Below are positions 1 through 39,860 of a stretch of 39,860 nucleotides of DNA, piece by piece (the stretch's first letter is position 1; each line of letters starts with the position of its first letter). This DNA comes from a virus: IMG/VR virus record IMGVR_UViG_3300001688_000010; one strand, written 5' to 3'. The position numbers were made by a program, and so were the translations under genes. The notes below the pieces were generated by a model. The model had not been told where the DNA came from. It was given only the letters and a program-made list of their open reading frames with translations, and made no database searches.

Positions 1-88
1 AGCCCCCGCAAGCATCACCGACGGCGACCTGGTGCTCGTCACCAGCGACCTGAGCGGCAGCTTCGAGGACACTGGCCTGGAGAACGAC
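1..88. repeat. Terminal redundancy: nt 1-88 are identical to nt 39773-39860 (closure of a circular or permuted genome, unit length 39772 bp)
   Basis: Direct comparison of the two window ends gives 88/88 identity. The repeat lies inside one continuous ORF. Confidence 0.95.
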
Positions 89-1327
89 CAGACCTACTTC
101 TGGCGCTTCTTCCCGTTCAGCGACCACGGCGTCTACAATCTCAACGAGGAGAACATCATCAGCGCGACCCCTCGCGCCTACATCCTCTACGGCTTCGAGA
201 TCAACAAGGCCAACAGTGACCCCGAGAGCTGCGTCACCTACACCGACATGGCCGTGGGCTTCACCCCCGCCCGCGTAAATTTGTCCACCGGCGCCTTCGA
301 CCCCGGCAGCTGGACCGAGGACGTGTTCTTCCGCCAGAACAACCACGTCTGGATGGTAAAGAGCGATGGCACTCCTGACTACCAGCTGAACGACAACGAC
401 TACACGAAGAAGCTGGACGGCTCTGCCTCTGACGTCAGCAACAGCGCCTACGACGGCAACGCCATGGTCCGCTTCGACACCGTCTGGATCAAGGCCTCCG
501 AGAGCGGCAACGTCATGAAGGTGCAGATCTGCAACATCCAGCTGGACGAGGACTTCCACGCCTACGCTCACACCCGTGAGGACGGCAGCATCATGGACTA
601 CATCTGGATGGCAGCCTTCGAGGGCTCCACCATCAGCTCCAAGATCCGCTCCATCAAGGGCGTCGCTCCTACCACCAGCCAGACCGGCGCCAACGAGATC
701 ACCTACGCGGCCAACAACGGCAGCCTCTGGGGCACTCAGACCTGGAGCCAGATCAACATGATCAATATGCTGCTGATCCTGATGGGCAAGAGCCTGAACA
801 CCCAGGCCGTGTTTGGCTACGGCCACTATGACGGCGGATCTCAGGCCAGCCATCTGCTGAAGACCGGCACGATCTCCGACAAGGGCGCCTTCTACGGCAC
901 CAGCGGCAACGTGGCCATGAAAGTGTTCCACATCGAGAACTACTACGGCGACGCCTGGAACCGCATCAGGGGCTGCGTGACCGACGGCAACAAGCAGATC
1001 CTTGTAAAAATGACCCCGCCCTACAATACCGCAGGCACTGGCTACACTGCGACCGGCATCACGCCCGGCGGTACTTCCGGCGGATATATCAGCGCGGCCA
1101 AGATGACCGCGAACGGCCTGATCCCTCAGACCGCGAGCGGCTCCGAGACCACATACTTCGCGGACGGCCTCTGGTTCGCTGCCTCGTGCTACGCGCTCGT
1201 GGGTGGCGACTGCTACGATGGTATGGTAGTCGGAGCATTTGCTTTGTATTTGGGCGATGCCGTGTCCCGTGCGACCTGGTACTTCGGCGCCGCGCTTTCT
1301 TGTGAACAGCCTTTGTCCGCGGCGTAG
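2..1327 (+). CDS. DGR target: distal tail-fibre / receptor-binding protein, C-terminal 441 codons. The 5' part of the same ORF is at 39552..39860; the full protein is about 515 aa.
   Basis: The open frame runs from position 2, and the listed ORF 32..1327 is an internal GTG. The frame is continuous with 39552..39860 through the 88-nt overlap. It is the last gene of the tail module. The C-terminus (GGDCYDGMVVGAFALYLGDAVSRATWYFGAALSC) contains the VR. Confidence 0.9.
   Translation, partial: APASITDGDLVLVTSDLSGSFEDTGLENDQTYFWRFFPFSDHGVYNLNEENIISATPRAYILYGFEINKANSDPESCVTYTDMAVGFTPARVNLSTGAFDPGSWTEDVFFRQNNHVWMVKSDGTPDYQLNDNDYTKKLDGSASDVSNSAYDGNAMVRFDTVWIKASESGNVMKVQICNIQLDEDFHAYAHTREDGSIMDYIWMAAFEGSTISSKIRSIKGVAPTTSQTGANEITYAANNGSLWGTQTWSQINMINMLLILMGKSLNTQAVFGYGHYDGGSQASHLLKTGTISDKGAFYGTSGNVAMKVFHIENYYGDAWNRIRGCVTDGNKQILVKMTPPYNTAGTGYTATGITPGGTSGGYISAAKMTANGLIPQTASGSETTYFADGLWFAASCYALVGGDCYDGMVVGAFALYLGDAVSRATWYFGAALSCEQPLSAA
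1194..1303 (+). repeat. DGR variable repeat (VR)
   Basis: 110 bp collinear with 1424..1533. There are 17 mismatches and all are at TR adenines. It lies within the last roughly 45 codons of the tail-fibre ORF. Confidence 0.93.
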
Positions 1328-1334
1328 CCGCGGA
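1316..1334 (+). promoter_or_regulatory. Perfect 8-bp hairpin (tccgcggc-gta-gccgcgga) 12 nt downstream of VR, spanning the stop codon. Candidate DGR target-recognition hairpin.
   Basis: The inverted repeat was read directly from the sequence. Its position relative to VR mirrors the hairpin/cruciform downstream of the IMH in Bordetella phage BPP-1. Confidence 0.55.
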
Positions 1335-1423
1335 CTCGGGGGGTCCGGGGGCCCTCCCCCGGTAACGGCGTGAACTGATCATTACCAGGGGCCCGGGCGG
1401 GCGCTTTAGGCGTCCTGCTGTTT

Positions 1424-1533
1424 CACTCGTGGGTGGCAACTGCAACAATGGTATGAAAGTCGGAGCATTTGCTTTGAATTTGAACAATGCCGTGTCCAAT
1501 ACGAACTGGAACATCGGCGCCGCGCTATCTTGT
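1424..1533 (+). repeat. DGR template repeat (TR), non-coding RNA template
   Basis: Cognate of the VR. It contains 28 adenines, of which 17 differ in VR. In the VR frame it reads GGNCNNGMKVGAFALNLNNAVSNTNWNIGAALSC, with 9 AAY codons. It sits in the intergenic space upstream of the RT. Confidence 0.93.
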
Positions 1534-1684
1534 CTACATCCCAATGAACCAGCCCGCCCGGGTCCTACACCCCAGGATCTTGAAATAGATCTACCAGCAG
1601 TGGAAATAAAGCCAAGACAAGGCACCGGCCAGTAAGCAGCAGGCCCGCAGCCGGTGAGGCGATAAGAAAGAAGACAACCTTGTT

Positions 1685-3034
1685 ATGAAAAGTTTCCGTA
1701 TTGACGACACGGCCGCAGCTTCCTCCGGAAGCATCGAGAGGGCCATGCTTAACGCATCAAAGAGAAAGAGGTCCAGGAAGGACGTCCAGCGCAGGCTGGC
1801 CAAGATGGAGGAGACCATCGCCACGCTCCAGGTCGTGATCGAGGAGCGCAACTACAACCCCAGACACCACGAGGCCATCGTCATCAACGAAAACGGACCC
1901 CACAAAGAGAGGCAGATCATCAAGCCGGACTACTTCCCGGAGCAGATCATGCACCACGTCGCTGTCCAGGCTCTCCATCCCTGCATCATGCACGGCATGG
2001 GCGCCTTCGTGCTCGGCTCCATCCCAGGACGCGGGGCGCACTACGGGAAGCGCTACGTCGAGAAGTGGCTGCGGCACGATGAAAAGAACACCAGGATCAT
2101 CGGCAAGCTGGACATCCGGCACTTCTTCCAAAGTGTCGACCACGAGCTGCTGAAGGCCTGGATCCATAAGAAAATACGGCCGGGGAAGATCCGCGACCTC
2201 TGCGATCTGATCATCGAGGGCGTGGAGGAAGGGCTCCCGCTGGGCTTCTACACGAGCCAGTGGTTCAGCAACTTCCTATTGCAGCCGCTCGACCATTTCA
2301 TCATGGAGGAGCTGCACGTCTCCCACATGGCGCGGTACATGGACGACATCGTGATCTTCGGATCCAACAAGAAGACCATCCATGCCGCCATGGAGGCCAT
2401 CGACTTCTATTTGTGGAACAACTTCCGCCTGGAGATGAAGAAGAACTGGCAAGTGTTCCGGATGGAATACGTCACGACCGAGTACGCCATCGAGTGCGAA
2501 AAGCTGGGCGATCTGTACGCCCTTCATGACGCGCTACCGGTGAAGCATCAGCTGAAAATGTACAAGGGCCGCCGGAAGATCTTCCTCAAAGCCAACGCCA
2601 GGAACGAGGCCGTCATGGACGAGTACCTGGAGAAGTACGGCGCCAAAGCGGAAACGGTCAGAATGACCCACGGGAGGGCTCTGGATTTTATGGGCTTCGA
2701 GTTCCATCGAGATCGGACCGTCCTCCGTAAATCAATTATGATCAGTGCCACACGCAAAGCAGCCCGGATCGGAGCAGCTCACCGGATCAACTGGGTGGAG
2801 GCTGCCGGGATGCTCTCATATATGGGCTGGATTGACCACACCAACACCTACGCGATGTATCTGGAGTGGGTCAAGCCGTATGTGAATATCAAGAGGCTAA
2901 AGAAAATAATCAGCAACCATCAAAGGAGGCTAAACAATGGAATTGATCTACAAAACCGTCAGGGGCTCCCAGCAGACGCGCCCGGAGGAGCTCGATCTCA
3001 CGTCGAGCCCGGACAAGGTGTATCTGCGTCGTAA
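1685..3034 (+). CDS. DGR reverse transcriptase (449 aa as given)
   Basis: RT motifs are present: KERQIIKP, GSIPGRG, KLDIRHFF, LPLGFYTSQWFSNFLL (DGR SQ signature), ARYMDDIVIFG, ALDFMGFEF. The RBS is weak. The last roughly 98 nt overlap the next gene. Confidence 0.92.
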   Translation: MKSFRIDDTAAASSGSIERAMLNASKRKRSRKDVQRRLAKMEETIATLQVVIEERNYNPRHHEAIVINENGPHKERQIIKPDYFPEQIMHHVAVQALHPCIMHGMGAFVLGSIPGRGAHYGKRYVEKWLRHDEKNTRIIGKLDIRHFFQSVDHELLKAWIHKKIRPGKIRDLCDLIIEGVEEGLPLGFYTSQWFSNFLLQPLDHFIMEELHVSHMARYMDDIVIFGSNKKTIHAAMEAIDFYLWNNFRLEMKKNWQVFRMEYVTTEYAIECEKLGDLYALHDALPVKHQLKMYKGRRKIFLKANARNEAVMDEYLEKYGAKAETVRMTHGRALDFMGFEFHRDRTVLRKSIMISATRKAARIGAAHRINWVEAAGMLSYMGWIDHTNTYAMYLEWVKPYVNIKRLKKIISNHQRRLNNGIDLQNRQGLPADAPGGARSHVEPGQGVSAS

Positions 3035-3266
3035 TATCACCACCGTCACCGAGGCCAACGCTACCACAGGGGAGTCCATCCAGCTCTGGCAGTACGACGA
3101 GGCCATCCTCACCCGGGAGGAGTACGCTCAGTACAAGGCAGAGACGGAAAACGCCGGTCAGAAGCAGATCATGGAGAAACTGCAAACGACCGCAACCGAC
3201 GACAGCCAGCTGATCATCATGGAGGCCCTCGCGGATCTCTACGATCTGATCGCTTCGCTGGCGTAG
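2937..3266 (+). CDS. Hypothetical acidic protein in an XkdW-like position downstream of the tail fibre
   Basis: ATG preceded by an AGGAGG RBS. Its synteny (tail fibre, small proteins, holin, lysin) resembles PBSX xkdV-W-X. No domain was recognised with certainty. Confidence 0.6.
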   Translation: MELIYKTVRGSQQTRPEELDLTSSPDKVYLRRNITTVTEANATTGESIQLWQYDEAILTREEYAQYKAETENAGQKQIMEKLQTTATDDSQLIIMEALADLYDLIASLA

Positions 3267-3279
3267 AAAGGAGGACGTC

Positions 3280-3417
3280 ATGGTAGAGCTCTACACCAGG
3301 CTGATCATCAACAAACGACGCACCATTGACTCCGTGCCGGCAGGCATGAAGTCGGAAGTGGTCGAGCGTCTGAAGGCGCTCGGCTTCGACACTAATGGCG
3401 ATCCCCTCGGGGAATAA
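3280..3417 (+). CDS. Small phage protein (45 aa), paralogue of 3463..3618
   Basis: AGGAGG RBS. MVELYTRLIINKRRTIDSVPAGMKSEVVERLKALGFDTNGDP aligns with MVDLYVALIIAGRRTIDQVPVKFREAVIADLNALGLDENGEP. It is below the ORF-track length cut-off. Confidence 0.6.
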   Translation: MVELYTRLIINKRRTIDSVPAGMKSEVVERLKALGFDTNGDPLGE

Positions 3418-3462: not shown

Positions 3463-3618
3463 ATGGTAGATTTGTATGTCGCTTTAATCATCGCAGGACG
3501 CAGAACCATTGACCAGGTGCCCGTCAAGTTCAGGGAGGCCGTGATCGCAGACCTCAACGCCCTCGGCCTGGACGAGAACGGCGAGCCCATGGAGGACTAT
3601 GGCGTCGCTTCTCACTAA
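3463..3618 (+). CDS. Small phage protein (51 aa), paralogue of 3280..3417
   Basis: Internal ATG of the listed ORF 3421..3618, preceded by GGAGG. It shares the N-terminal motif with the upstream gene. Confidence 0.65.
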   Translation: MVDLYVALIIAGRRTIDQVPVKFREAVIADLNALGLDENGEPMEDYGVASH

Positions 3619-3637: not shown

Positions 3638-4003
3638 ATGTCGCCAGAAGTTTCCAGCATTATCATCGCGCTGATCGCAGGTCTGACCGGGTCCGGAGGA
3701 TGCTCCATCATCCTCTACCTGCTCCAGCGCCGTGATAAGAAAAAAGACGGCCAGACCGAGGAGGACAAGCAGCGCGACGAGGCCACCAAGCGCCAGAGCG
3801 CGATGCTGCTCGGCCTCGGCCATGATCGGATCGTTTACCTGGGAAGCTGCTACATCGAGCGGGGCTGCATCACTCAGGACGAGTACGAAAACCTGCACGA
3901 CTATCTCTACGAGCCCTATCTGGCGCTCGGCGGGAATGGTACGGCCAAAAAAGTCATGGCGGGGGTGGAACGCCTTCCGCTGCACAAAAACAAGGAGGAA
4001 TAA
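3638..4003 (+). CDS. Membrane-anchored protein of the lysis cassette (N-terminal TM helix, charged linker)
   Basis: AGGAGG RBS. Hydrophobic N-terminus IIIALIAGLTGSGGCSIILYLL followed by a KKKD/E-rich segment. It lies immediately upstream of the holin. Confidence 0.6.
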   Translation: MSPEVSSIIIALIAGLTGSGGCSIILYLLQRRDKKKDGQTEEDKQRDEATKRQSAMLLGLGHDRIVYLGSCYIERGCITQDEYENLHDYLYEPYLALGGNGTAKKVMAGVERLPLHKNKEE

Positions 4004-33263: not shown

Positions 33264-33907
33264 ACCTGCTGATCGACGGGCTGCCGGAGGAGGTAGAGAT
33301 CGCGGGCCAGCTGGTCCCGATCAGCACGCACTTCCGGACAGGCATACTGTTCGAGGAAGTGCTGCAAGATCCTGAGCTCGATGATCTGGAGAAGATCCAG
33401 ACCGCGCTCCAGCTATACTTCCCCGGCGTCATCTTTGACCCTGATGTGCTCGACGAGGCGATCAGCAAGATGGTCTGGTTTTACCGCTGCGGCGTGGAGC
33501 CCGCAGAGACGACGGGCAAGTCCGCAGACGACACCGTCAACGATGAACCGCCTTTTTCCTACGAGCACGACGCTGACTATATTTTTTCCGCGTTCATGCA
33601 GGCCTACGGCCTGGATCTGGCGCGGCGCCCCCTCCACTGGTGGCAGTTCCGAGCGCTCTTTAGATCGCTACCCGAAGACACGCAGCTGGTCAAGATCATC
33701 GGCTACCGCACGATGAAGATCCCGGCCAAGATGTCCAAGGAGCAGCGGCAGCACTATGAGAAGATGAAGCGCATCTACGCTCTCCCTCAGTCGGCTGACC
33801 GTCAGCAGCTCGAAAGTGACCTAAACAACCTACTTATGAACGGCGGCAACCCTGCCGCACTCTTGAATGGTAGCGAGGTAAGGTCATGGCATCAGATGGA
33901 ACCCTAA
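33254..33907 (+). CDS. Gp15-like tail chaperone extension (gpT analogue), probably made by a -1 frameshift from 32859..33263
   Basis: The conserved-looking N-terminus LNLLIDGLPEEVEIAGQLVPISTHFRTGILFEE lies upstream of the only listed start (GTG 33359). That stretch contains no ATG, GTG or TTG. The frame opens right at the slippery taaaaag (33251..33257). Confidence 0.6.
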   Translation, partial: KALNLLIDGLPEEVEIAGQLVPISTHFRTGILFEEVLQDPELDDLEKIQTALQLYFPGVIFDPDVLDEAISKMVWFYRCGVEPAETTGKSADDTVNDEPPFSYEHDADYIFSAFMQAYGLDLARRPLHWWQFRALFRSLPEDTQLVKIIGYRTMKIPAKMSKEQRQHYEKMKRIYALPQSADRQQLESDLNNLLMNGGNPAALLNGSEVRSWHQMEP

Positions 33908-36474
33908 AATTTGACACAAGCCTGGACTCCGGCGGTCTACAGTCGGGGATGGGCAAGGTCGCAGGCATCGCACAGCAGGCGCTGGGCGTGTTCAGCGGCC
34001 AGATGATGACCAGGGCAGTCGATAGCCTGGTCAACCTCGGGAAGACGGCCCTCAGCAGTGTGGGCGCTCTCGAACAGAACGTGGGCGGCGTCGAGACGCT
34101 GTTCGGCGACACTGCGGACGCAGTCATCGCCGCAGCGGATCGCGCCTACCAGACGGCAGGAATGTCTGCCAACGACTACATGAGCACGGTCACGAGCTTC
34201 TCGGCGTCCCTGCTCCAGTCCCTCGGAGGTAACACCGAGGAAGCCGCCAAGGTGGCGGACATGGCCATCATCGACATGGTCGACAATGCGAACAAGATGG
34301 GCACGTCCATGGATATGATCCAGAACGCGTACCAGGGCTTCGCAAAACAGAACTACACCATGCTGGACAACCTGAAGCTGGGCTACGGCGGCACGAAGAC
34401 CGAGATGGAGCGACTGCTGGCCGATGCTCAGAAGCTGACGGGCGTCAAGTATGACATCAACAACCTGAACGACGTCTACCAGGCGATCCATGTGATCCAG
34501 GAAGAAATGGGGATCACCGGCACCACAGCCAAGGAAGCCTCCGAGACGCTGGAGGGATCCATGGCAGCGGCGAAGGCCGCCTGGGATAACTTCATGAACG
34601 GCTCCGGCGATGCTGATCAGCTGGCCGACGCCTTCGCAACGGCGGCGGACAACATCGTCAAGAACCTGGCCGAGATCATCCCGCGCTTCGCTGAGACGCT
34701 GCCGGCTCTGGCCGGTGCCATCGTTTCCCAGATCCCGGGTCTGGCTGCTGCCATCGTGCCCGCAGTCCTCTCTGCTGGCCAGAGTATTCTGGAGCAGGCC
34801 CGGGACGCTGTCACGGCCTTCGACTTTGTGGCGGCTGCTGAGGACGTCGTGCAGAAGATCACGGACTTCATCAGCAGCGACGGCCTGGGCTCTTTCCTGG
34901 GCTGCCTGGTGGACATTTTCACCGGCATCGTCAACGGTATCAGCTCCATGCTGCCGGTGCTTCTGCCGGCTCTCGTCGAGCTGATCGCCTACACCGTGAC
35001 CACGCTGATCGACCAGCTGCCGGCTCTCCTGGAGTGTGCGCTCCAGCTGATCATCGGCCTGGCTGACGGTCTGCTCGCCGCGCTGCCTGTTCTGGTCGCA
35101 GCACTGCCGGAGATCATCAACTCCGTGGTGAGCTTCCTGGTGGCGGCAGCTCCTCAGATCCTCCAGGCAGGCATCACGCTCCTGCTGGCTCTGGTGGACG
35201 CGCTCCCGACCGTGATCGACGCGCTGATCGCAGCGCTGCCTCAGATCATCGAGTCCACAGTCTCCACGCTGGTCGCAGCAGCGCCTCAGATCGTGCAGGC
35301 GGGCATCACGCTCCTGCTGGCTCTGATCGAGGCCATCCCGGTCATCGTGCCCCAGATCGTGGCCGCACTGCCCCAGATCATCACGGCCATCATCAACGGC
35401 CTGATCGCAGCGGGCCCGCAGGTCCTGGCAAGCGCCCAGGAAGTATGGGGTCAGATCACCGCAGCCGTCCCTCAGCTGATCGCTGACATCGGCGCAGCCG
35501 TGCCGGAGATCATTAACGGCATCGTCAACGGCCTGGCCGCTGGCGCGTCCGCAGTATGGGACGCAGCCTGCCAGCTGGGCAGCAACATCCTGGGCGGCAT
35601 CAAGAGCTTCCTGGGTATCAACAGCCCGAGCACCGTCATGGCGGAGCAGGGCAACTACATCATCCAGGGCCTGCTGAACGGTCTGGAGACCATGCCCGAC
35701 GCGGTCAACCAGCTGTTCCAGTCCACCCTGGACAGCATCACCACCTGGGGCTCTGACATGGTGGCCCGGATCGGCGAGTGGGGCGCCAATATGGCGACCG
35801 CAGCCGGCACGGCGATGAACACCATGGTCCAGACTGTCATCCAGTGGGTGCAGCAGCTCCCCGAGAAGGTCTGGGTCTGGCTGGTTAATACGGCCAACAA
35901 GCTGAACCAGTGGACGATCCAGCTCGTGCAGAAGGGCCAGGCGGCAGCCACAGGCCTCGTCAACGCTGTCCTCGATGGCGTCCGTACACTGCCGAGCCTC
36001 ATGGTCTCCGTCGGCTCTGACATCGTCCAGGGCCTCTGGAACGGCATCAGCGCAGGATGGTCCTGGCTGACCAATAAAGTCGCAGACCTGGCCCAGAGCC
36101 TGCTGCAAGCTGCGAAGAACGCCCTCGACATCGGATCGCCTTCTCGTGAGTTCCGCGACGAGGTCGGCCGCTGGATCATGCCCGGCATCGGCGAAGGCAT
36201 CGACAAGTCCATGCCTGAGACGCTGCAAAACCTGAAGGCAAGAGCCGGAGAGCTCGTCGGTGCCATGCGTGCCGAGCTGGCGGCCTCCACCTCTCAGATG
36301 GCCCTCGGGGCTTCTCACGCTGCCGGTCTGAGGACCGCCGGCGTCGGCACCACAGTCTACTACGACAACCGCGTGGAGCAGAACAATGAGTACCACGTTC
36401 CGGTCGCCAGCCCGTCCGAGGTAAACAAAGCACAGCGCGAAGCTGTCAGAAAGCTGGTCGGAGGTGTGAAATGA
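33886..36474 (+). CDS. Tape measure protein
   Basis: 862 aa. N-terminus typical of tape measure proteins (GVETLFGDTADAV..NAYQGFAKQNYTMLDNLKLGYGGT) and a hydrophobic repeat core. Confidence 0.9.
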   Translation: MASDGTLKFDTSLDSGGLQSGMGKVAGIAQQALGVFSGQMMTRAVDSLVNLGKTALSSVGALEQNVGGVETLFGDTADAVIAAADRAYQTAGMSANDYMSTVTSFSASLLQSLGGNTEEAAKVADMAIIDMVDNANKMGTSMDMIQNAYQGFAKQNYTMLDNLKLGYGGTKTEMERLLADAQKLTGVKYDINNLNDVYQAIHVIQEEMGITGTTAKEASETLEGSMAAAKAAWDNFMNGSGDADQLADAFATAADNIVKNLAEIIPRFAETLPALAGAIVSQIPGLAAAIVPAVLSAGQSILEQARDAVTAFDFVAAAEDVVQKITDFISSDGLGSFLGCLVDIFTGIVNGISSMLPVLLPALVELIAYTVTTLIDQLPALLECALQLIIGLADGLLAALPVLVAALPEIINSVVSFLVAAAPQILQAGITLLLALVDALPTVIDALIAALPQIIESTVSTLVAAAPQIVQAGITLLLALIEAIPVIVPQIVAALPQIITAIINGLIAAGPQVLASAQEVWGQITAAVPQLIADIGAAVPEIINGIVNGLAAGASAVWDAACQLGSNILGGIKSFLGINSPSTVMAEQGNYIIQGLLNGLETMPDAVNQLFQSTLDSITTWGSDMVARIGEWGANMATAAGTAMNTMVQTVIQWVQQLPEKVWVWLVNTANKLNQWTIQLVQKGQAAATGLVNAVLDGVRTLPSLMVSVGSDIVQGLWNGISAGWSWLTNKVADLAQSLLQAAKNALDIGSPSREFRDEVGRWIMPGIGEGIDKSMPETLQNLKARAGELVGAMRAELAASTSQMALGASHAAGLRTAGVGTTVYYDNRVEQNNEYHVPVASPSEVNKAQREAVRKLVGGVK
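35098..35493 (+). repeat. Three degenerate tandem 132-bp (44-aa) repeats inside the tape measure gene
   Basis: Units begin at 35098, 35230 and 35362 (AALPEIIN.. / AALPQIIE.. / AALPQIIT..). Confidence 0.8.
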
Positions 36475-37379
36475 ATAAATTAACCCTGAAGATCGTGCTC
36501 ACCTGCAACGGCCGGACCCTCACCATGGGGCCCGGCTCCGATCTGGACATCACAAAGGTCTCCGGACTGGAGTCGTCCGACATCTCCCTGAGCACGTCAG
36601 ACAATGCCCTCGTCGACGGCGTAACAGTCGACGGCAAGAAGATCCAGGCCCGCCCGATCCACATCGAGGCGGCCTTCCGGGATCTGAAAAACAACGCGGA
36701 GAACCGGCAGAAGGTGATCAAGTTCTTCAACCCAAAGTACACCGGCAAGGCGCTGATCACCAACATGGGCGTCAGCCGCAACATCGAGTACGAGCTGGAG
36801 GGCTGGAGCTTCAAAGAGCAGGCCAACCTCAACAGCCGCCTGAAGATCGTGGTCGACCTCCTCTGCCCGGATCCGTATATGCTCAACACGGACAACTTCG
36901 GCAAGAACATGGCAGCCTTCACCGCCCTGTTCGCGTTCCCGTGGAGAGTCACCAGCCAGAAGGTCCTGGGCGTGCCTAAGCCCTACACAGGGCTCGCCCT
37001 GGGCGGCATGGCCATGGCCTACAGAACGCTCCGCCAGGAGGTGGCTCTGGCCAACGACGGCGACGTTCAGACCGGTGTGATCATCAAGTTCGTGGCCACT
37101 CGTGGCCCGGTAAAGAACCCGAAGATCGCCAAGGTCGGAACATCCAACTTTATGAGGGTGAAGGTGGACATGGAGATGGGCGACGTCCTGGTCATCGACA
37201 CCAACGAGCGGCACCAGGTCGTCGAGCTCAACGGCGTGAACTGCTACCAGCGAGTGGACAGGGCCAGCAACCCCTTCCAGCTGGACGTGGGCGACAACTA
37301 TCTGGAATATGCAGCCGACGAGAACTACGTCAATCTGGACGTCAACCTCTACTACACGCCCAAATATCTGGGGGTGTAA
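36471..37379 (+). CDS. Distal tail protein (Dit, siphovirus tail family)
   Basis: Position right after the tape measure gene. 302 aa. Confidence 0.75.
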   Translation: MNKLTLKIVLTCNGRTLTMGPGSDLDITKVSGLESSDISLSTSDNALVDGVTVDGKKIQARPIHIEAAFRDLKNNAENRQKVIKFFNPKYTGKALITNMGVSRNIEYELEGWSFKEQANLNSRLKIVVDLLCPDPYMLNTDNFGKNMAAFTALFAFPWRVTSQKVLGVPKPYTGLALGGMAMAYRTLRQEVALANDGDVQTGVIIKFVATRGPVKNPKIAKVGTSNFMRVKVDMEMGDVLVIDTNERHQVVELNGVNCYQRVDRASNPFQLDVGDNYLEYAADENYVNLDVNLYYTPKYLGV

Positions 37380-37382
37380 ATT

Positions 37383-38492
37383 ATGCGAATTTCAGTATTA
37401 GACGCCAGCTTCGAACTGCTCGGCGAGTTCTCCATCTACCGCTCACTGATCTGGAACCGGCGTTACTATGAGCCGGGCGTGTTCGAGATCCACACAGCCG
37501 TGGAATACTTCCCGCTGCTGAACTCGGGCCGCTATATCTTCCGGCACGACCGGCAGGAGCTGGGCGTCATCCGGGAGGTCAACTACACACAGACCAGCAA
37601 GGGCGCCCGCACAGCCTACTGCAAGGGCTACTTCAGCGAGGCCCTGTTCAACAACCGCGTCACCGTTCCCGCTGCCAATATCACCGGCACGCCGGAGGAG
37701 ATCAGCAGGGCCCTGGTGACGACGTACTTCATCAGCCCCAGCGATGGCGACCGTGTTTTCCCTCAGATCCGGCTGGGAGCGCTCTCCGGTCTGGGCTCGT
37801 CCACTACGCTGCAAAGCACCGGCGACCAGATCGGCGACAAGATGTACGAGCTGGAACGCACCCAGGAGCTGAGCCACCGCCTTGTCTTCGACTTCGAGGA
37901 GAACATCCTCACGTTCGAGGTCTGGGCTGGCCTGGATCGCACCGACGACCAGGAAGTGAACAGCCCGGCGACCTTCTCCAATGCGTTCTACAACGTCAAG
38001 AACGTCGTCTACGACCGCGACGCCAGCACTGCCGCCAACTTCGCCTATGTGGCCGGAGAGGGCGAGGACGCTGATCGTGTCATTGTGGAGGTGGACGCCA
38101 GAACTGACGCCACCCAGGAGCGCCGGGAGATCTTCGTGGATGCACGAGACCTGCAGAAGACCTACAAGGACAGCAGCGGCACAGAGCGCACCTACTCCGA
38201 CACCCAGTACGCCGCCCTGCTCCGGCAGCGCGGTCTGGAGAAGCTGGACGAATACGCTCAGGTGGAGGTCGTCAACAGTGACATCGACGCCAGCGCCAAC
38301 CTCGTCTACATGGAAGACTTCGACCTGGGAGATCTCTGCACCTATCAGAACCAGGACGTCGGCATCGAGACCGTGAAGCGGATCACCGAGATCCAGGAGG
38401 TCTACGAAGGCAGCAAGGCGACGCTCAACATCACCTTCGGCAATGACGAGTCCACCTCACTCACAAAAATCATAAGGAGGGAAACAACCTAA
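37383..38492 (+). CDS. Tail-associated protein (Sipho_Gp37-like)
   Basis: N-terminus ISVLDASFELLGEFSIYRSLIWNRRYYEPGVFEI is typical of the ReqiPepy6 Gp37-like family. Confidence 0.7.
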   Translation: MRISVLDASFELLGEFSIYRSLIWNRRYYEPGVFEIHTAVEYFPLLNSGRYIFRHDRQELGVIREVNYTQTSKGARTAYCKGYFSEALFNNRVTVPAANITGTPEEISRALVTTYFISPSDGDRVFPQIRLGALSGLGSSTTLQSTGDQIGDKMYELERTQELSHRLVFDFEENILTFEVWAGLDRTDDQEVNSPATFSNAFYNVKNVVYDRDASTAANFAYVAGEGEDADRVIVEVDARTDATQERREIFVDARDLQKTYKDSSGTERTYSDTQYAALLRQRGLEKLDEYAQVEVVNSDIDASANLVYMEDFDLGDLCTYQNQDVGIETVKRITEIQEVYEGSKATLNITFGNDESTSLTKIIRRETT

Positions 38493-39547
38493 TGCGATAC
38501 GGATATTTTGACAGCGAGATCATCGGCACAGACTCGGAGGGTATGCCCATTTTCGACCGAGCTGAGACCTCTGATCTGTTCCGTCTTCTCTTTTCCAAAC
38601 TGGTCAGCAACGGCGTCCTGGCGTCCCCCAGCGACTGCTTCCAGGTCGTAGCTGCGGAAGGTCTGAACGTCACCGTCCGGCCCGGCTTCGGTATGATCAA
38701 GGGCGCCTTCGCCTACGATGACGCCGAGAACCGACTGACCCTGGCTGCGGCCCCGACACAGTACAGCCGCATCGACCGCATCGTTCTCCGCTGCAACTTC
38801 GCGGACAGACTCTGCGAGCTGGTCGTCAAGACCGGCACCGTGGCCAATACTCCGGCCGCTCCGGAGATCGTCCAGCCCGCAGCCGGCGACTACTTCGAGC
38901 TGGGCCTGGCGACGGTCCTGGTGAGCGCCAACGCGACAGCAGTGACCCAGGCTAACATCACCGACACCAGACTGGACAGCGCGGTCTGCGGCTTCATCAC
39001 GCAGCTGATCGACCATCTGGACACCAGCACCTTCTTCGACCAGCTCGATCAGTTCTACACTGAGTTCGTCAGCAAGACCGAGGCCGACTACCAGCTGAGC
39101 CGTGAGCAGTACCTGGAGATGTGCCAGGACATCGTGGACACGCTGACAACCTTCGAGCAGACCGCCGAGTCCGACTTCGATCTCTGGTTCCAGAGTATCA
39201 AGGACAAGCTGGCCGGAGACGTGGCCGGAGCGCTCCAGAACCAGATCGACGCTCTGACCGAGACGATCTTCCTGGACAAGTACGGCCTCTGCTCCAAAGT
39301 AACCACCATCACCAAAAACGCAGCCGGCGAGACTGAAGGGATCCTGGAGACCGACGAGGGCGCCCAGGTGACGGCCCTGACGACCTTCCAGAAGGACGCA
39401 GAGGGCAACACCAGCAGCATCGTCACGGTCATCACTCCCGCAGACGGCAACTACTACTACACGAAGACCGCCGCGTTCGAGACTACTGACGGCAACGGCA
39501 GCAAGTCGATCACGGAGTCCTACACCCAAAACATAAAGGAGGACTAA
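38492..39547 (+). CDS. Baseplate upper protein / tail-fibre base (BppU-like N-terminal domain)
   Basis: The pattern RIDRIVLRCN..YELGLATVLV..ITDTRLDSAVCGF is typical of the BppU N-terminal domain. Confidence 0.7.
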   Translation: MRYGYFDSEIIGTDSEGMPIFDRAETSDLFRLLFSKLVSNGVLASPSDCFQVVAAEGLNVTVRPGFGMIKGAFAYDDAENRLTLAAAPTQYSRIDRIVLRCNFADRLCELVVKTGTVANTPAAPEIVQPAAGDYFELGLATVLVSANATAVTQANITDTRLDSAVCGFITQLIDHLDTSTFFDQLDQFYTEFVSKTEADYQLSREQYLEMCQDIVDTLTTFEQTAESDFDLWFQSIKDKLAGDVAGALQNQIDALTETIFLDKYGLCSKVTTITKNAAGETEGILETDEGAQVTALTTFQKDAEGNTSSIVTVITPADGNYYYTKTAAFETTDGNGSKSITESYTQNIKED

Positions 39548-39551
39548 CCAC

Positions 39552-39860
39552 ATGGCAGACTTCACAGGTGCCCAGTACACAGTCGACGAAGTGCTGGCAG
39601 GCATCAAGAAAAACCAGATCACCGGCCTGCCTCCCTCTAACCTGACCAGCAAGAGCGTCAGGATCGGAGACGGCAAGGCCACACTCGTCTGGAGCGTTCC
39701 GGCCACGACTACGGTCGACGGCCAGGTGCTTCAGACTACCGGCGGCGTTATGATCCGCCGCAAACTGGGCGAAGCCCCCGCAAGCATCACCGACGGCGAC
39801 CTGGTGCTCGTCACCAGCGACCTGAGCGGCAGCTTCGAGGACACTGGCCTGGAGAACGAC
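39552..39860 (+). CDS. 5' part of the DGR target tail-fibre gene (FN3-like region), continuing at position 2 through the circular junction
   Basis: ATG with an AGGAGG RBS 4 nt after the upstream stop. No stop codon before the window end. In frame with 2..1327 once the 88-nt overlap is collapsed. Confidence 0.85.
   Translation, partial: MADFTGAQYTVDEVLAGIKKNQITGLPPSNLTSKSVRIGDGKATLVWSVPATTTVDGQVLQTTGGVMIRRKLGEAPASITDGDLVLVTSDLSGSFEDTGLEND

Follow-up and report, generated by a model that had tools for sequence, protein, structure and literature searches.

Evidence for a diversity-generating retroelement without an accessory gene, acting on a tail protein tip in a temperate siphovirus of gut Clostridia

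A tail gene whose 3' end recurs in altered form a short distance downstream, next to a gene for a reverse transcriptase (RT), raises the question of whether these parts make up a diversity-generating retroelement (DGR), in which a template repeat (TR) is copied into a variable repeat (VR) of a target gene with changes at TR adenines. If they do, it is also of interest which protein is being changed and how the element manages without the accessory protein Avd. Such a locus lies in the IMG/VR virus record IMGVR_UViG_3300001688_000010, a stretch of 39,860 nucleotides (nt) that was analyzed as a whole and is called the window here. We conclude that the locus is almost certainly a DGR with the accessory-gene-free TR-RT architecture, and that it diversifies the tip of a tail protein. 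A sequence-only reading of the same DNA had arrived at a DGR as well, and this interpretation is supported by the adenine specificity of the repeat differences, an RT resembling that of the Bordetella DGR (bRT), a target with the fold of DGR variable proteins, a GC-rich element followed by a sequence like the initiation of mutagenic homing (IMH) site, and natural variation restricted to VR. Coordinates are collected in Table 1.

Repeat pair, natural variation, and reverse transcriptase

VR and TR align without a gap over 110 nt at an offset of 230 by direct comparison, and a repeat finder returns the same pair. There are 17 mismatches, every one at a TR adenine (17 of 28), with A changed to G nine times, to T six times, and to C twice; no mismatch at any other TR base is present over the 110 aligned positions in the window. 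These are exactly the figures given in the sequence-only reading, and realignment produced no non-adenine mismatch. Were 17 mismatches placed at random on 110 positions, the probability that all would hit the 28 adenines is ~5.6e-13. As the mismatches are confined to TR adenines, neutral divergence cannot be their source. Codon positions 1 or 2 of the target frame hold 15 of the 17 changes. Read in that frame, TR comprises nine AAY codons, as stated earlier along with correct translations of both repeats, and one AAA besides.

The homology begins sharply at its 5' edge (1193/1423) and fades on the 3' side past 1303/1533, with five of eight positions matching up to 1311/1541. VR ends 24 nt before the target stop codon, 120 nt separate VR from TR, and a further 151 nt separate TR from the RT start. 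A scan of both strands of the window that required a match at non-adenine TR positions only found no second VR. A 68-amino-acid (aa) open reading frame (ORF) with a GTG start (1429-1635) traverses TR; it owes its existence solely to TR being a copy of coding VR sequence, and nothing indicates a real gene.

Viral and metagenome collections were searched with a pattern that fixed only the flanks of VR and left its 76-nt interior unconstrained. This flank-anchored search yielded nine distinct VR interiors, the window's included. Across the nine, 136 of 137 differences from TR fall on TR adenines. The remaining one, a T-to-C change at TR index 50 in the related locus L104 (metagenome contig ERZ857693.573), reflects either a plain point mutation or an error in sequencing. 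TR is identical in eight of the nine loci, the exception again being L104, whose contig stops short of TR; a TR identical to the window's was found in eight further independent contigs (L001, L002, L004 to L006, L023, L103, and L105). Over the nine VRs as a set, variation reaches 25 of the 28 TR adenines. The adenine of the Met codon was never changed, and two adenines were changed identically everywhere, so that every natural copy having this TR carries G at 1195 and T at 1297. These two positions are fixed TR/VR boundary or IMH-type differences and not products of mutagenesis. The earlier attribution of all 17 differences to mutagenic retrohoming thus stands as far as their placement on TR adenines goes, but only 15 of the window's differences are mutagenic, and these lie within the truly varying tract of 76 nt. 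With 13 variable residues, the theoretical repertoire is ~10^13.6 protein variants.

In the six full-length copies whose alignment to the window is gap-free, VR is 81-86% identical versus 97.7-98.9% for the 900 nt upstream, and TR together with 1.5 kb downstream is at least 99.5% identical. The RT is 99-100% identical to the window's in seven viral contigs, and the five of these that allow a comparison of the repeats (L001, L002, and L004 to L006) have the window's TR and a different VR, which differs from their own TR at adenines only. Besides the IMG/VR contigs, an RT at 100% identity occurs in a "Clostridia bacterium" metagenome-assembled genome from water-deer rectum, and copies of VR are also present in human-gut assemblies. 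More distant relatives, down to ~31% RT identity, have TR/VR pairs of their own with adenine-biased mismatches, and the layout of VR, short gap, TR, and RT with such mismatches is seen in ~61 of 79 RT-relative loci from bacterial genomes. Since nine VRs over the same TR differ from it at TR adenines in 136 of 137 cases, the element is active now or was so recently in nature.

It could be argued instead that the DGR has decayed, that is, that the repeats and RT persist while this genome no longer carries out retrohoming, its VR differences being relics of the past. The comparisons above are between samples; some Faecalibacterium phage DGRs have shown no sign of activity in culture (PMC11792537); and in one related contig a single fused copy stands in place of VR and TR. 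Yet the RT ORF is intact and 100% identical in seven other contigs, TR is unchanged in the eight further ones, the RNA helices described below are intact, and VR differs in every independent lineage, at TR adenines only, while the flanks differ by 1-2%. Many recent retrohoming events are required to produce VRs that differ from lineage to lineage at TR adenines over near-constant flanks, and we regard decay as very improbable. In the fused contig (L007, ~3700-3860, RT 99% identical), VR and TR form one chimeric copy and the 230-bp interval is gone, which reflects either repeat-repeat recombination or assembly collapse.

The RT ORF contains LGFYTSQWFSNF and YMDD, as the sequence-only reading had stated in placing such a gene shortly after TR. 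Pfam assigns it only to the generic RVT_1 family, and PHROG 1423 ("reverse transcriptase") matches it at 5.6e-83. Its best sequence match in the Protein Data Bank (PDB) is bRT (8ub7, E 8.5e-21), where IPIGSLTSQLF aligns with LPLGFYTSQWF of the window RT and YMDD with YMDD. An AlphaFold model built with 73 homologues reached a predicted local distance difference test (pLDDT) score of 87, with the last ~28 residues modelled as disordered (pLDDT below 50). The top PDB fold for this model is 8ub7_A (E 1.9e-17, target-normalised template-modelling [TM] score 0.88, root-mean-square deviation 3.6 Å), and group II intron RTs rank behind it. Motif 4, the YxDD box, and a closest solved relative from a DGR place the enzyme with DGR RTs, as had been proposed, a relation judged by sequence and fold match. 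The nearest RTs from cultured phages, 33-38% identical, are those of Butyrivibrio phages Idris and Arawn, Faecalibacterium phage FP_Epona, and Lactobacillus phage LBR48.

These matches bear on whether the repeat might have arisen by simple duplication of a tail gene's 3' end, with the neighbouring RT belonging to some other system, such as a group II intron, a retron, or a defence RT. The RVT_1-only Pfam assignment and weak NCBIfam matches to group II intron, Drt3a, and retron models would fit this explanation. All of these NCBIfam matches, however, are far below the family cut-offs (group II intron 68 bits versus 300, retron 41.5 versus 235, Drt3a 50 versus 200), and Rfam finds no intron or retron RNA in the window. 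Moreover, the mismatches are limited to the adenines of one copy, and the best match of the RT in both sequence and fold is a DGR RT. We give a chance duplication next to no credence.

The diversified tail protein and its carrier

The first 88 bp of the window recur exactly at its end (1-88 = 39773-39860), so the assembly closes into a circle of 39,772 bp. It represents the whole 39.8-kb genome of a temperate siphovirus that belongs to gut Clostridia. We found no near-identical cultured phage; the only matches were short ones, in the endolysin and the integrase, to Faecalibacterium and Acutalibacter phages.

The target gene, whose frame runs over the circular junction, encodes 515 aa and is the last gene of the tail module. 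No Pfam domain matched the protein, and PHROG 5302 ("tail protein") matches it over nearly its full length. An AlphaFold (AF2) model from 86 homologues has a pLDDT of 95 and a predicted TM score of 0.91. The best PDB folds to this model, found with Foldseek, are TaqVP (5vf4, 7.6e-11) and Mtd (1yu0, 1.8e-4), followed by the FGE-like PvdO and EgtB and, weakly, TvpA. Because the best folds belong to DGR variable proteins and the next ones to FGE-like proteins, the C-type-lectin tip that had been predicted is supported, and the model indicates a C-type-lectin/FGE-class fold as in DGR variable proteins. As in TaqVP and Mtd, VR is situated at the C-terminal end of the fold. With 10-15% sequence identity and TM scores of just 0.3-0.5, the target represents a distant variant of their fold; TaqVP, besides, is a cellular protein and not a phage tail protein. 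Membership in the tentaclins, which have an N-terminal C-type-lectin domain followed by immunoglobulin (Ig) domains, was rejected, as the variable domain of the target is C-terminal and Ig domains were not detected in it.

The sequence-only reading had called the target the distal tail-fibre (receptor-binding) protein. Its position at the end of the tail module, the PHROG match, and the fold bear out a tail protein with such a tip. The more specific designation as a tail fibre draws on the best matches in a viral model library, which are proteins named tail collar fibre or tail fibre, some of them from crAss-like phages, and these names are automatic annotations. The target is presumably a receptor-binding protein, judging from gene order, the PHROG 5302 match, and fold likeness. 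It is also possible that a working DGR here acts on an accessory adhesin for mucus or other surfaces. The function of the target is deduced from position and fold, the 351-aa gene between Tal and the target could encode the real receptor-binding protein, and binding to non-host ligands has been suggested for DGR targets of other gut phages (PMC10743442, PMC11792537). Against an adhesin stand the location of the target as the last tail-module gene, after Dit and Tal, the full-length "tail protein" match, and nearest folds that are Mtd-type proteins and named tail fibres. On balance, we consider an accessory adhesin unlikely, albeit to be taken seriously, and prefer the receptor-binding tail protein.

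The genes in this part of the genome are arranged in the order tape measure, Dit, Tal, 351-aa gene, target, TR, RT, 109-aa ORF, two XkdX-like genes, holin, and endolysin, followed on the opposite strand by a serine recombinase. The RT ORF and the 109-aa ORF overlap by 98 nt (2937-3034).

Table 1. Features of the retroelement and its neighbourhood in the window
Feature	Coordinates	Strand	Description	Basis
VR	1194-1303	+	Codes for last ~37 target residues ahead of conserved ...SCEQPLSAA tail	Direct comparison
TR	1424-1533	+	Non-coding, 28 adenines	Direct comparison with VR and relatives
Naturally varying tract	1208-1283	+	24 positions in first six distinct VRs, one more in L105; TR adenines except L104 T-to-C	
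GC-rich element and IMH-like sequence	1285-1311	+	CGGCGCCGCGC then TTTCTTGTGAACAGCC; TR counterpart 1515-1541 reads TATCTTGTCTACATCC	
GC-rich inverted repeat	1315-1335	+	GTCCGCGGC-GTA-GCCGCGGAC, 8-9 bp stem around target stop codon	
Second GC hairpin	1345-1362	+	CCGGGGGCCCTCCCCCGG; T-run after hairpin absent	
P1 helix, 5' strand	1388-1402	+	GGGGCCCGGGCGGGC, upstream of TR	Inverted-repeat match and relatives
P1 helix, 3' strand	1552-1566	+	GCCCGCCCGGGTCCT	Covariation
Structured spacer RNA	1566-1667	+	Full-length Rfam RT-4 RNA match, includes P2	
DGR RT	1685-3034	+	449 aa; LGFYTSQ (motif 4), YMDD	
RT insertion, ~65-70 aa	2456-2671	+	aa 258-329, between palm hairpin and thumb; extra relative to bRT	
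Target gene start	39552-39860	+	ATG at 39552, AAGGAGG ribosome-binding site upstream	Terminal overlap and continuous frame
Target gene remainder	1-1327	+	Stop TAG at 1325-1327	
Tape measure	33886-36474			
Dit	36471-37379		SPP1_Dit	
Tal	37383-38492		Sipho_Gp37/Prophage_tail	
351-aa gene between Tal and target	38492-39547			
Acidic 109-aa ORF after RT	2937-3266		pI (isoelectric point) 4.4, PHROG 20201, strong AGGAGG site	
Two tandem CD1375/XkdX-like small genes	3280-3417, 3463-3618		Between DGR and holin	

Target-site and RNA elements in the absence of Avd

The 3' side of VR carries elements of the kind expected at a DGR target site. The GC-rich CGGCGCCGCGC is common to both repeats; beyond it, VR continues as TTTCTTGTGAACAGCC and TR as TATCTTGTCTACATCC, with the difference at 1297 fixed in all copies. 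In relatives, the VR and TR versions past the GC-rich element diverge more. On sequence grounds, this asymmetry has the character of an IMH/IMH* pair. The 3' limit of information transfer falls between 1283 and 1297, inside CGGCGCCGCGC, similar to the (G/C)14 element of Bordetella. Located 4-12 nt after VR, the inverted repeat around the stop codon is predicted to fold as a hairpin (z = -2.9 for the 96-nt region) and is a candidate target-recognition hairpin or cruciform. Related loci keep the stem, with a centre of GCGTAGC or GCGTAAGC. Known target-site hairpins have 7-10 bp GC stems with a GRNA tetraloop, 4-34 bp downstream of VR (Guo et al. 2011; PMC3240598). The second GC hairpin possibly marks the end of the target transcript.

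On the RNA side, TR is bracketed into a loop by P1, a 15-bp long-range helix, which is followed by P2, a 6-bp hairpin (1575-1580 with 1587-1592) with a UGAAAU loop. Helix statistics were obtained from 28 distinct relatives anchored on the invariant AGGGG and CCUACACC motifs. Among these relatives the sequence of P1 is nearly all replaced while its complementarity is retained, and compensatory changes are seen in 11 of 15 pairs. For P1 and P2 together, 94.7% of cells are in standard pairs (71% in shuffles, 42-52% with the partner strand slid), compensatory changes occur in 16 of the 21 pairs (versus 13.0 for shuffles and 6-11 after sliding), and the covariation score is 0.63 (0.19 in shuffles, none of 500 reaching 0.63, and ~0.1 when slid). 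P1, the hairpin, and an A-rich GGAAAUAAAG follow one another in an arrangement of the cPRT Stop type. In Bordetella, the cPRT Stop consists of the avd:Sp duplex, then a stem-loop and adenosines; P1 is the analogue of the duplex, and the linker and the order of elements differ in detail. The Bordetella element ends cDNA synthesis and is needed for synthesis, and it was surveyed only in Avd-containing DGRs (Handa et al.). By analogy, P1 and P2 may have a role in stopping or priming cDNA.

The spacer between TR and RT matches the Rfam RT-4 RNA (RF03025) at 56.1 bits (E 3e-9, model positions 1-118) and lacks a ~20-nt insert of the consensus; because this score is less than the gathering score of 73.5, the spacer is an RT-4-like divergent homologue and not a curated member. 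In ten relatives, RT-4 matches above threshold (74-130 bits) lie precisely between TR and RT (L098, L068, L062, L086, L069, L077, L099, L072, L093, and L026), and in four others the same place is taken by RT-18 (RF03021; L049, L059, L080, and L014). The Rfam RT-4 model leaves out the TR-bracketing helix. Of the RT motifs, only RT-10 has been linked to a DGR, that of BPP-1; the others were speculated on, and RT-4 was not assigned to DGRs (Weinberg et al. 2017). We observe that the orphan Rfam motifs RT-4 and RT-18 sit in DGR spacers of the Avd-less lineage.

Further pairings were noticed around the 3' tail of TR. In relatives (for example, L012 1823/1958, L029 2848/2980, L057 2819/2934, and L090 2767/2963), a conserved GAUAAGA box immediately upstream of the RT start complements this tail (UUCUUAUC and variants), with a few compensatory variants. 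The pairing stands at 85.6% versus 80.8% in shuffles, which is weak support, and its core is mostly invariant; the two segments might pair as a template:primer duplex. The tail of the window's TR reads CUUGUCU (1529-1535), with complementary boxes AGACAAG at 1615-1621 and AGACAA at 1673-1678, and the CTTAT core is absent. In some relatives (L072, L099, L062, and L069, for example), the TR 3' tail folds back on a GGA(G)AAUAA-type segment 8-12 nt downstream, before the 3' strand of P1, through pairs such as UUAUUCU/AGAAUAA and UCUAUC/GAUAGA. This fold-back is placed like the TR:Sp priming duplex of Bordetella and is not evident in the window.

Avd is present in ~74% of DGRs, and hence not universally, and is essential in the Bordetella prototype. 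A Pfam scan of all 139 ORFs of 70-320 aa in the window gave no match to Avd (PF05635, 23S_rRNA_IVP), nor did a more permissive one, listing hits to E ~0.09, that covered the 78 ORFs of 85-190 aa. This absence was overlooked in the sequence-only reading. It heads a group of observations that count against our interpretation or against individual parts of it. A consensus scan did not find a sigma-70-like promoter upstream of TR. The spacer, as noted, scores below the RT-4 threshold, and the loop of the hairpin, GTA or CGTAG, departs from the GRNA tetraloop consensus. VR diversification was compared between samples. In relatives, a TATAA-like AT-rich stretch directly precedes AGGGG. The 109-aa ORF after the RT was considered as a candidate Avd and rejected; it is acidic, unlike the basic Avd.

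As Avd is undetectable, the mechanism cannot be identical to that of the Bordetella prototype. The Avd-less state is consistent with a known variant, Architecture A, in which TR and RT occur without an accessory gene; it accounts for 29% of DGRs, and an avd-less RT lineage is reported as well, with no avd elsewhere in the genomes (Wu et al. 2018; PMC5758913). The insertion in the RT might be thought to stand in for Avd. It is conserved in the close family, confidently modelled as beta-alpha-beta-beta-alpha-beta, and limited to a subclade with at least ~47% RT identity, where 109-116 aa separate YxDD from LDFMGF versus 46-53 aa in relatives that are equally Avd-less. A phmmer search of the PDB with the insertion returned no sequence relatives. 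The insertion cannot be a general substitute for Avd, because other Avd-less relatives do without it, and we rejected it in that role.

We infer that the element would work as follows. A transcript from near 1387 would comprise TR and the structured spacer (1542-1684) and probably continue into the RT gene. Helix P1 would loop out TR and, together with the RT-4-like spacer, may offer the 3' end of TR to the RT. Copying of TR by the RT would be faithful at all template bases but adenine, opposite which any nucleotide may enter the cDNA. The cDNA would then replace the target at 1208-1283, with a 3' limit within the GC-rich element (1285-1295), and targeting may be aided by the IMH-like sequence and the hairpin at 1315-1335. 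The outcome would be up to ~10^13.6 variants of 13 residues in the C-type-lectin-like tip, which presumably alter binding to a host surface ligand. We also advance, tentatively and as a possibility we do not favor, that RNA alone (the RT-4/RT-18-type spacer, P1, and the complementarity between the TR tail and GAUAAGA) may do the template and primer positioning with which Avd helps in Bordetella, in this large Avd-less lineage of Clostridia phages. If true, this would amount to a minimal two-component mutagenic retroelement made of an RT and ~300 nt of RNA. In the RT subclade of the window, the ferredoxin-like insertion might moreover be an extra nucleic-acid-binding module.

Relation to known retroelements and implications

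The prototype DGR of Bordetella phage BPP-1 (mtd-avd-TR-brt) shares with the window the adenine-specific transfer from TR to VR into the C-terminal C-type-lectin tip of a tail protein, and it also shares the RT fold, the GC-rich element, the IMH-like 3' divergence, and the stop-codon-enclosing hairpin after VR. The window differs in having no Avd, in VR and TR being 120 nt apart, and in its RT, which is 449 aa versus 328 aa, with the ~70-aa insertion and a longer N terminus. Also, its spacer is RT-4-like and not RT-10, its hairpin loop is not GRNA, and it has a Gram-positive anaerobe of the gut as host. With Architecture A and the avd-less RT Lineage 3 of Wu et al. (2018; PMC5758913), the window shares the order target-VR, TR, and RT, the lack of an accessory gene and of avd elsewhere, and an association with Firmicutes and phages. 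That classification does not cover the RNA elements or the RT insertion, and the likeness is one of layout.

Among cultured phages, the DGRs of Faecalibacterium, Butyrivibrio, and Lactobacillus phages (FP_Epona, Idris/Arawn, LBR48; Lagaffe, Roos, and others) likewise belong to siphoviruses of gut or rumen Firmicutes and lie beside the tail and lysis modules. They differ from the window in RT identity (<40%), in having no DNA similarity across the cassette, and in that the window's target is without DUF6273 or Ig domains. DGRs acting on tail proteins with C-type-lectin tips are well documented in gut Firmicutes phages (PMC8144416, PMC11792537, PMC5758913). Both tail-protein DGRs and the Avd-less TR-RT architecture were known already, and the element described here adds a further example.

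Taken together, the window presents a DGR that is well resolved and active in nature, borne by a complete phage genome from ruminant gut samples, with copies of the cassette in human gut assemblies. Its nine natural VR alleles point out the tail-tip residues at which variation is explored. The observations on the RNA side may be more useful than the element itself. The clean natural variation and the RNA features make an Avd-independent mechanism more testable, and the parts are compact: one RT, an RNA of ~300 nt with defined covarying helices, and a 76-nt diversified tract. This lineage is therefore a compact candidate for testing how the ~29% of DGRs that are Avd-less (Wu et al. 2018) work, and possibly for engineering.

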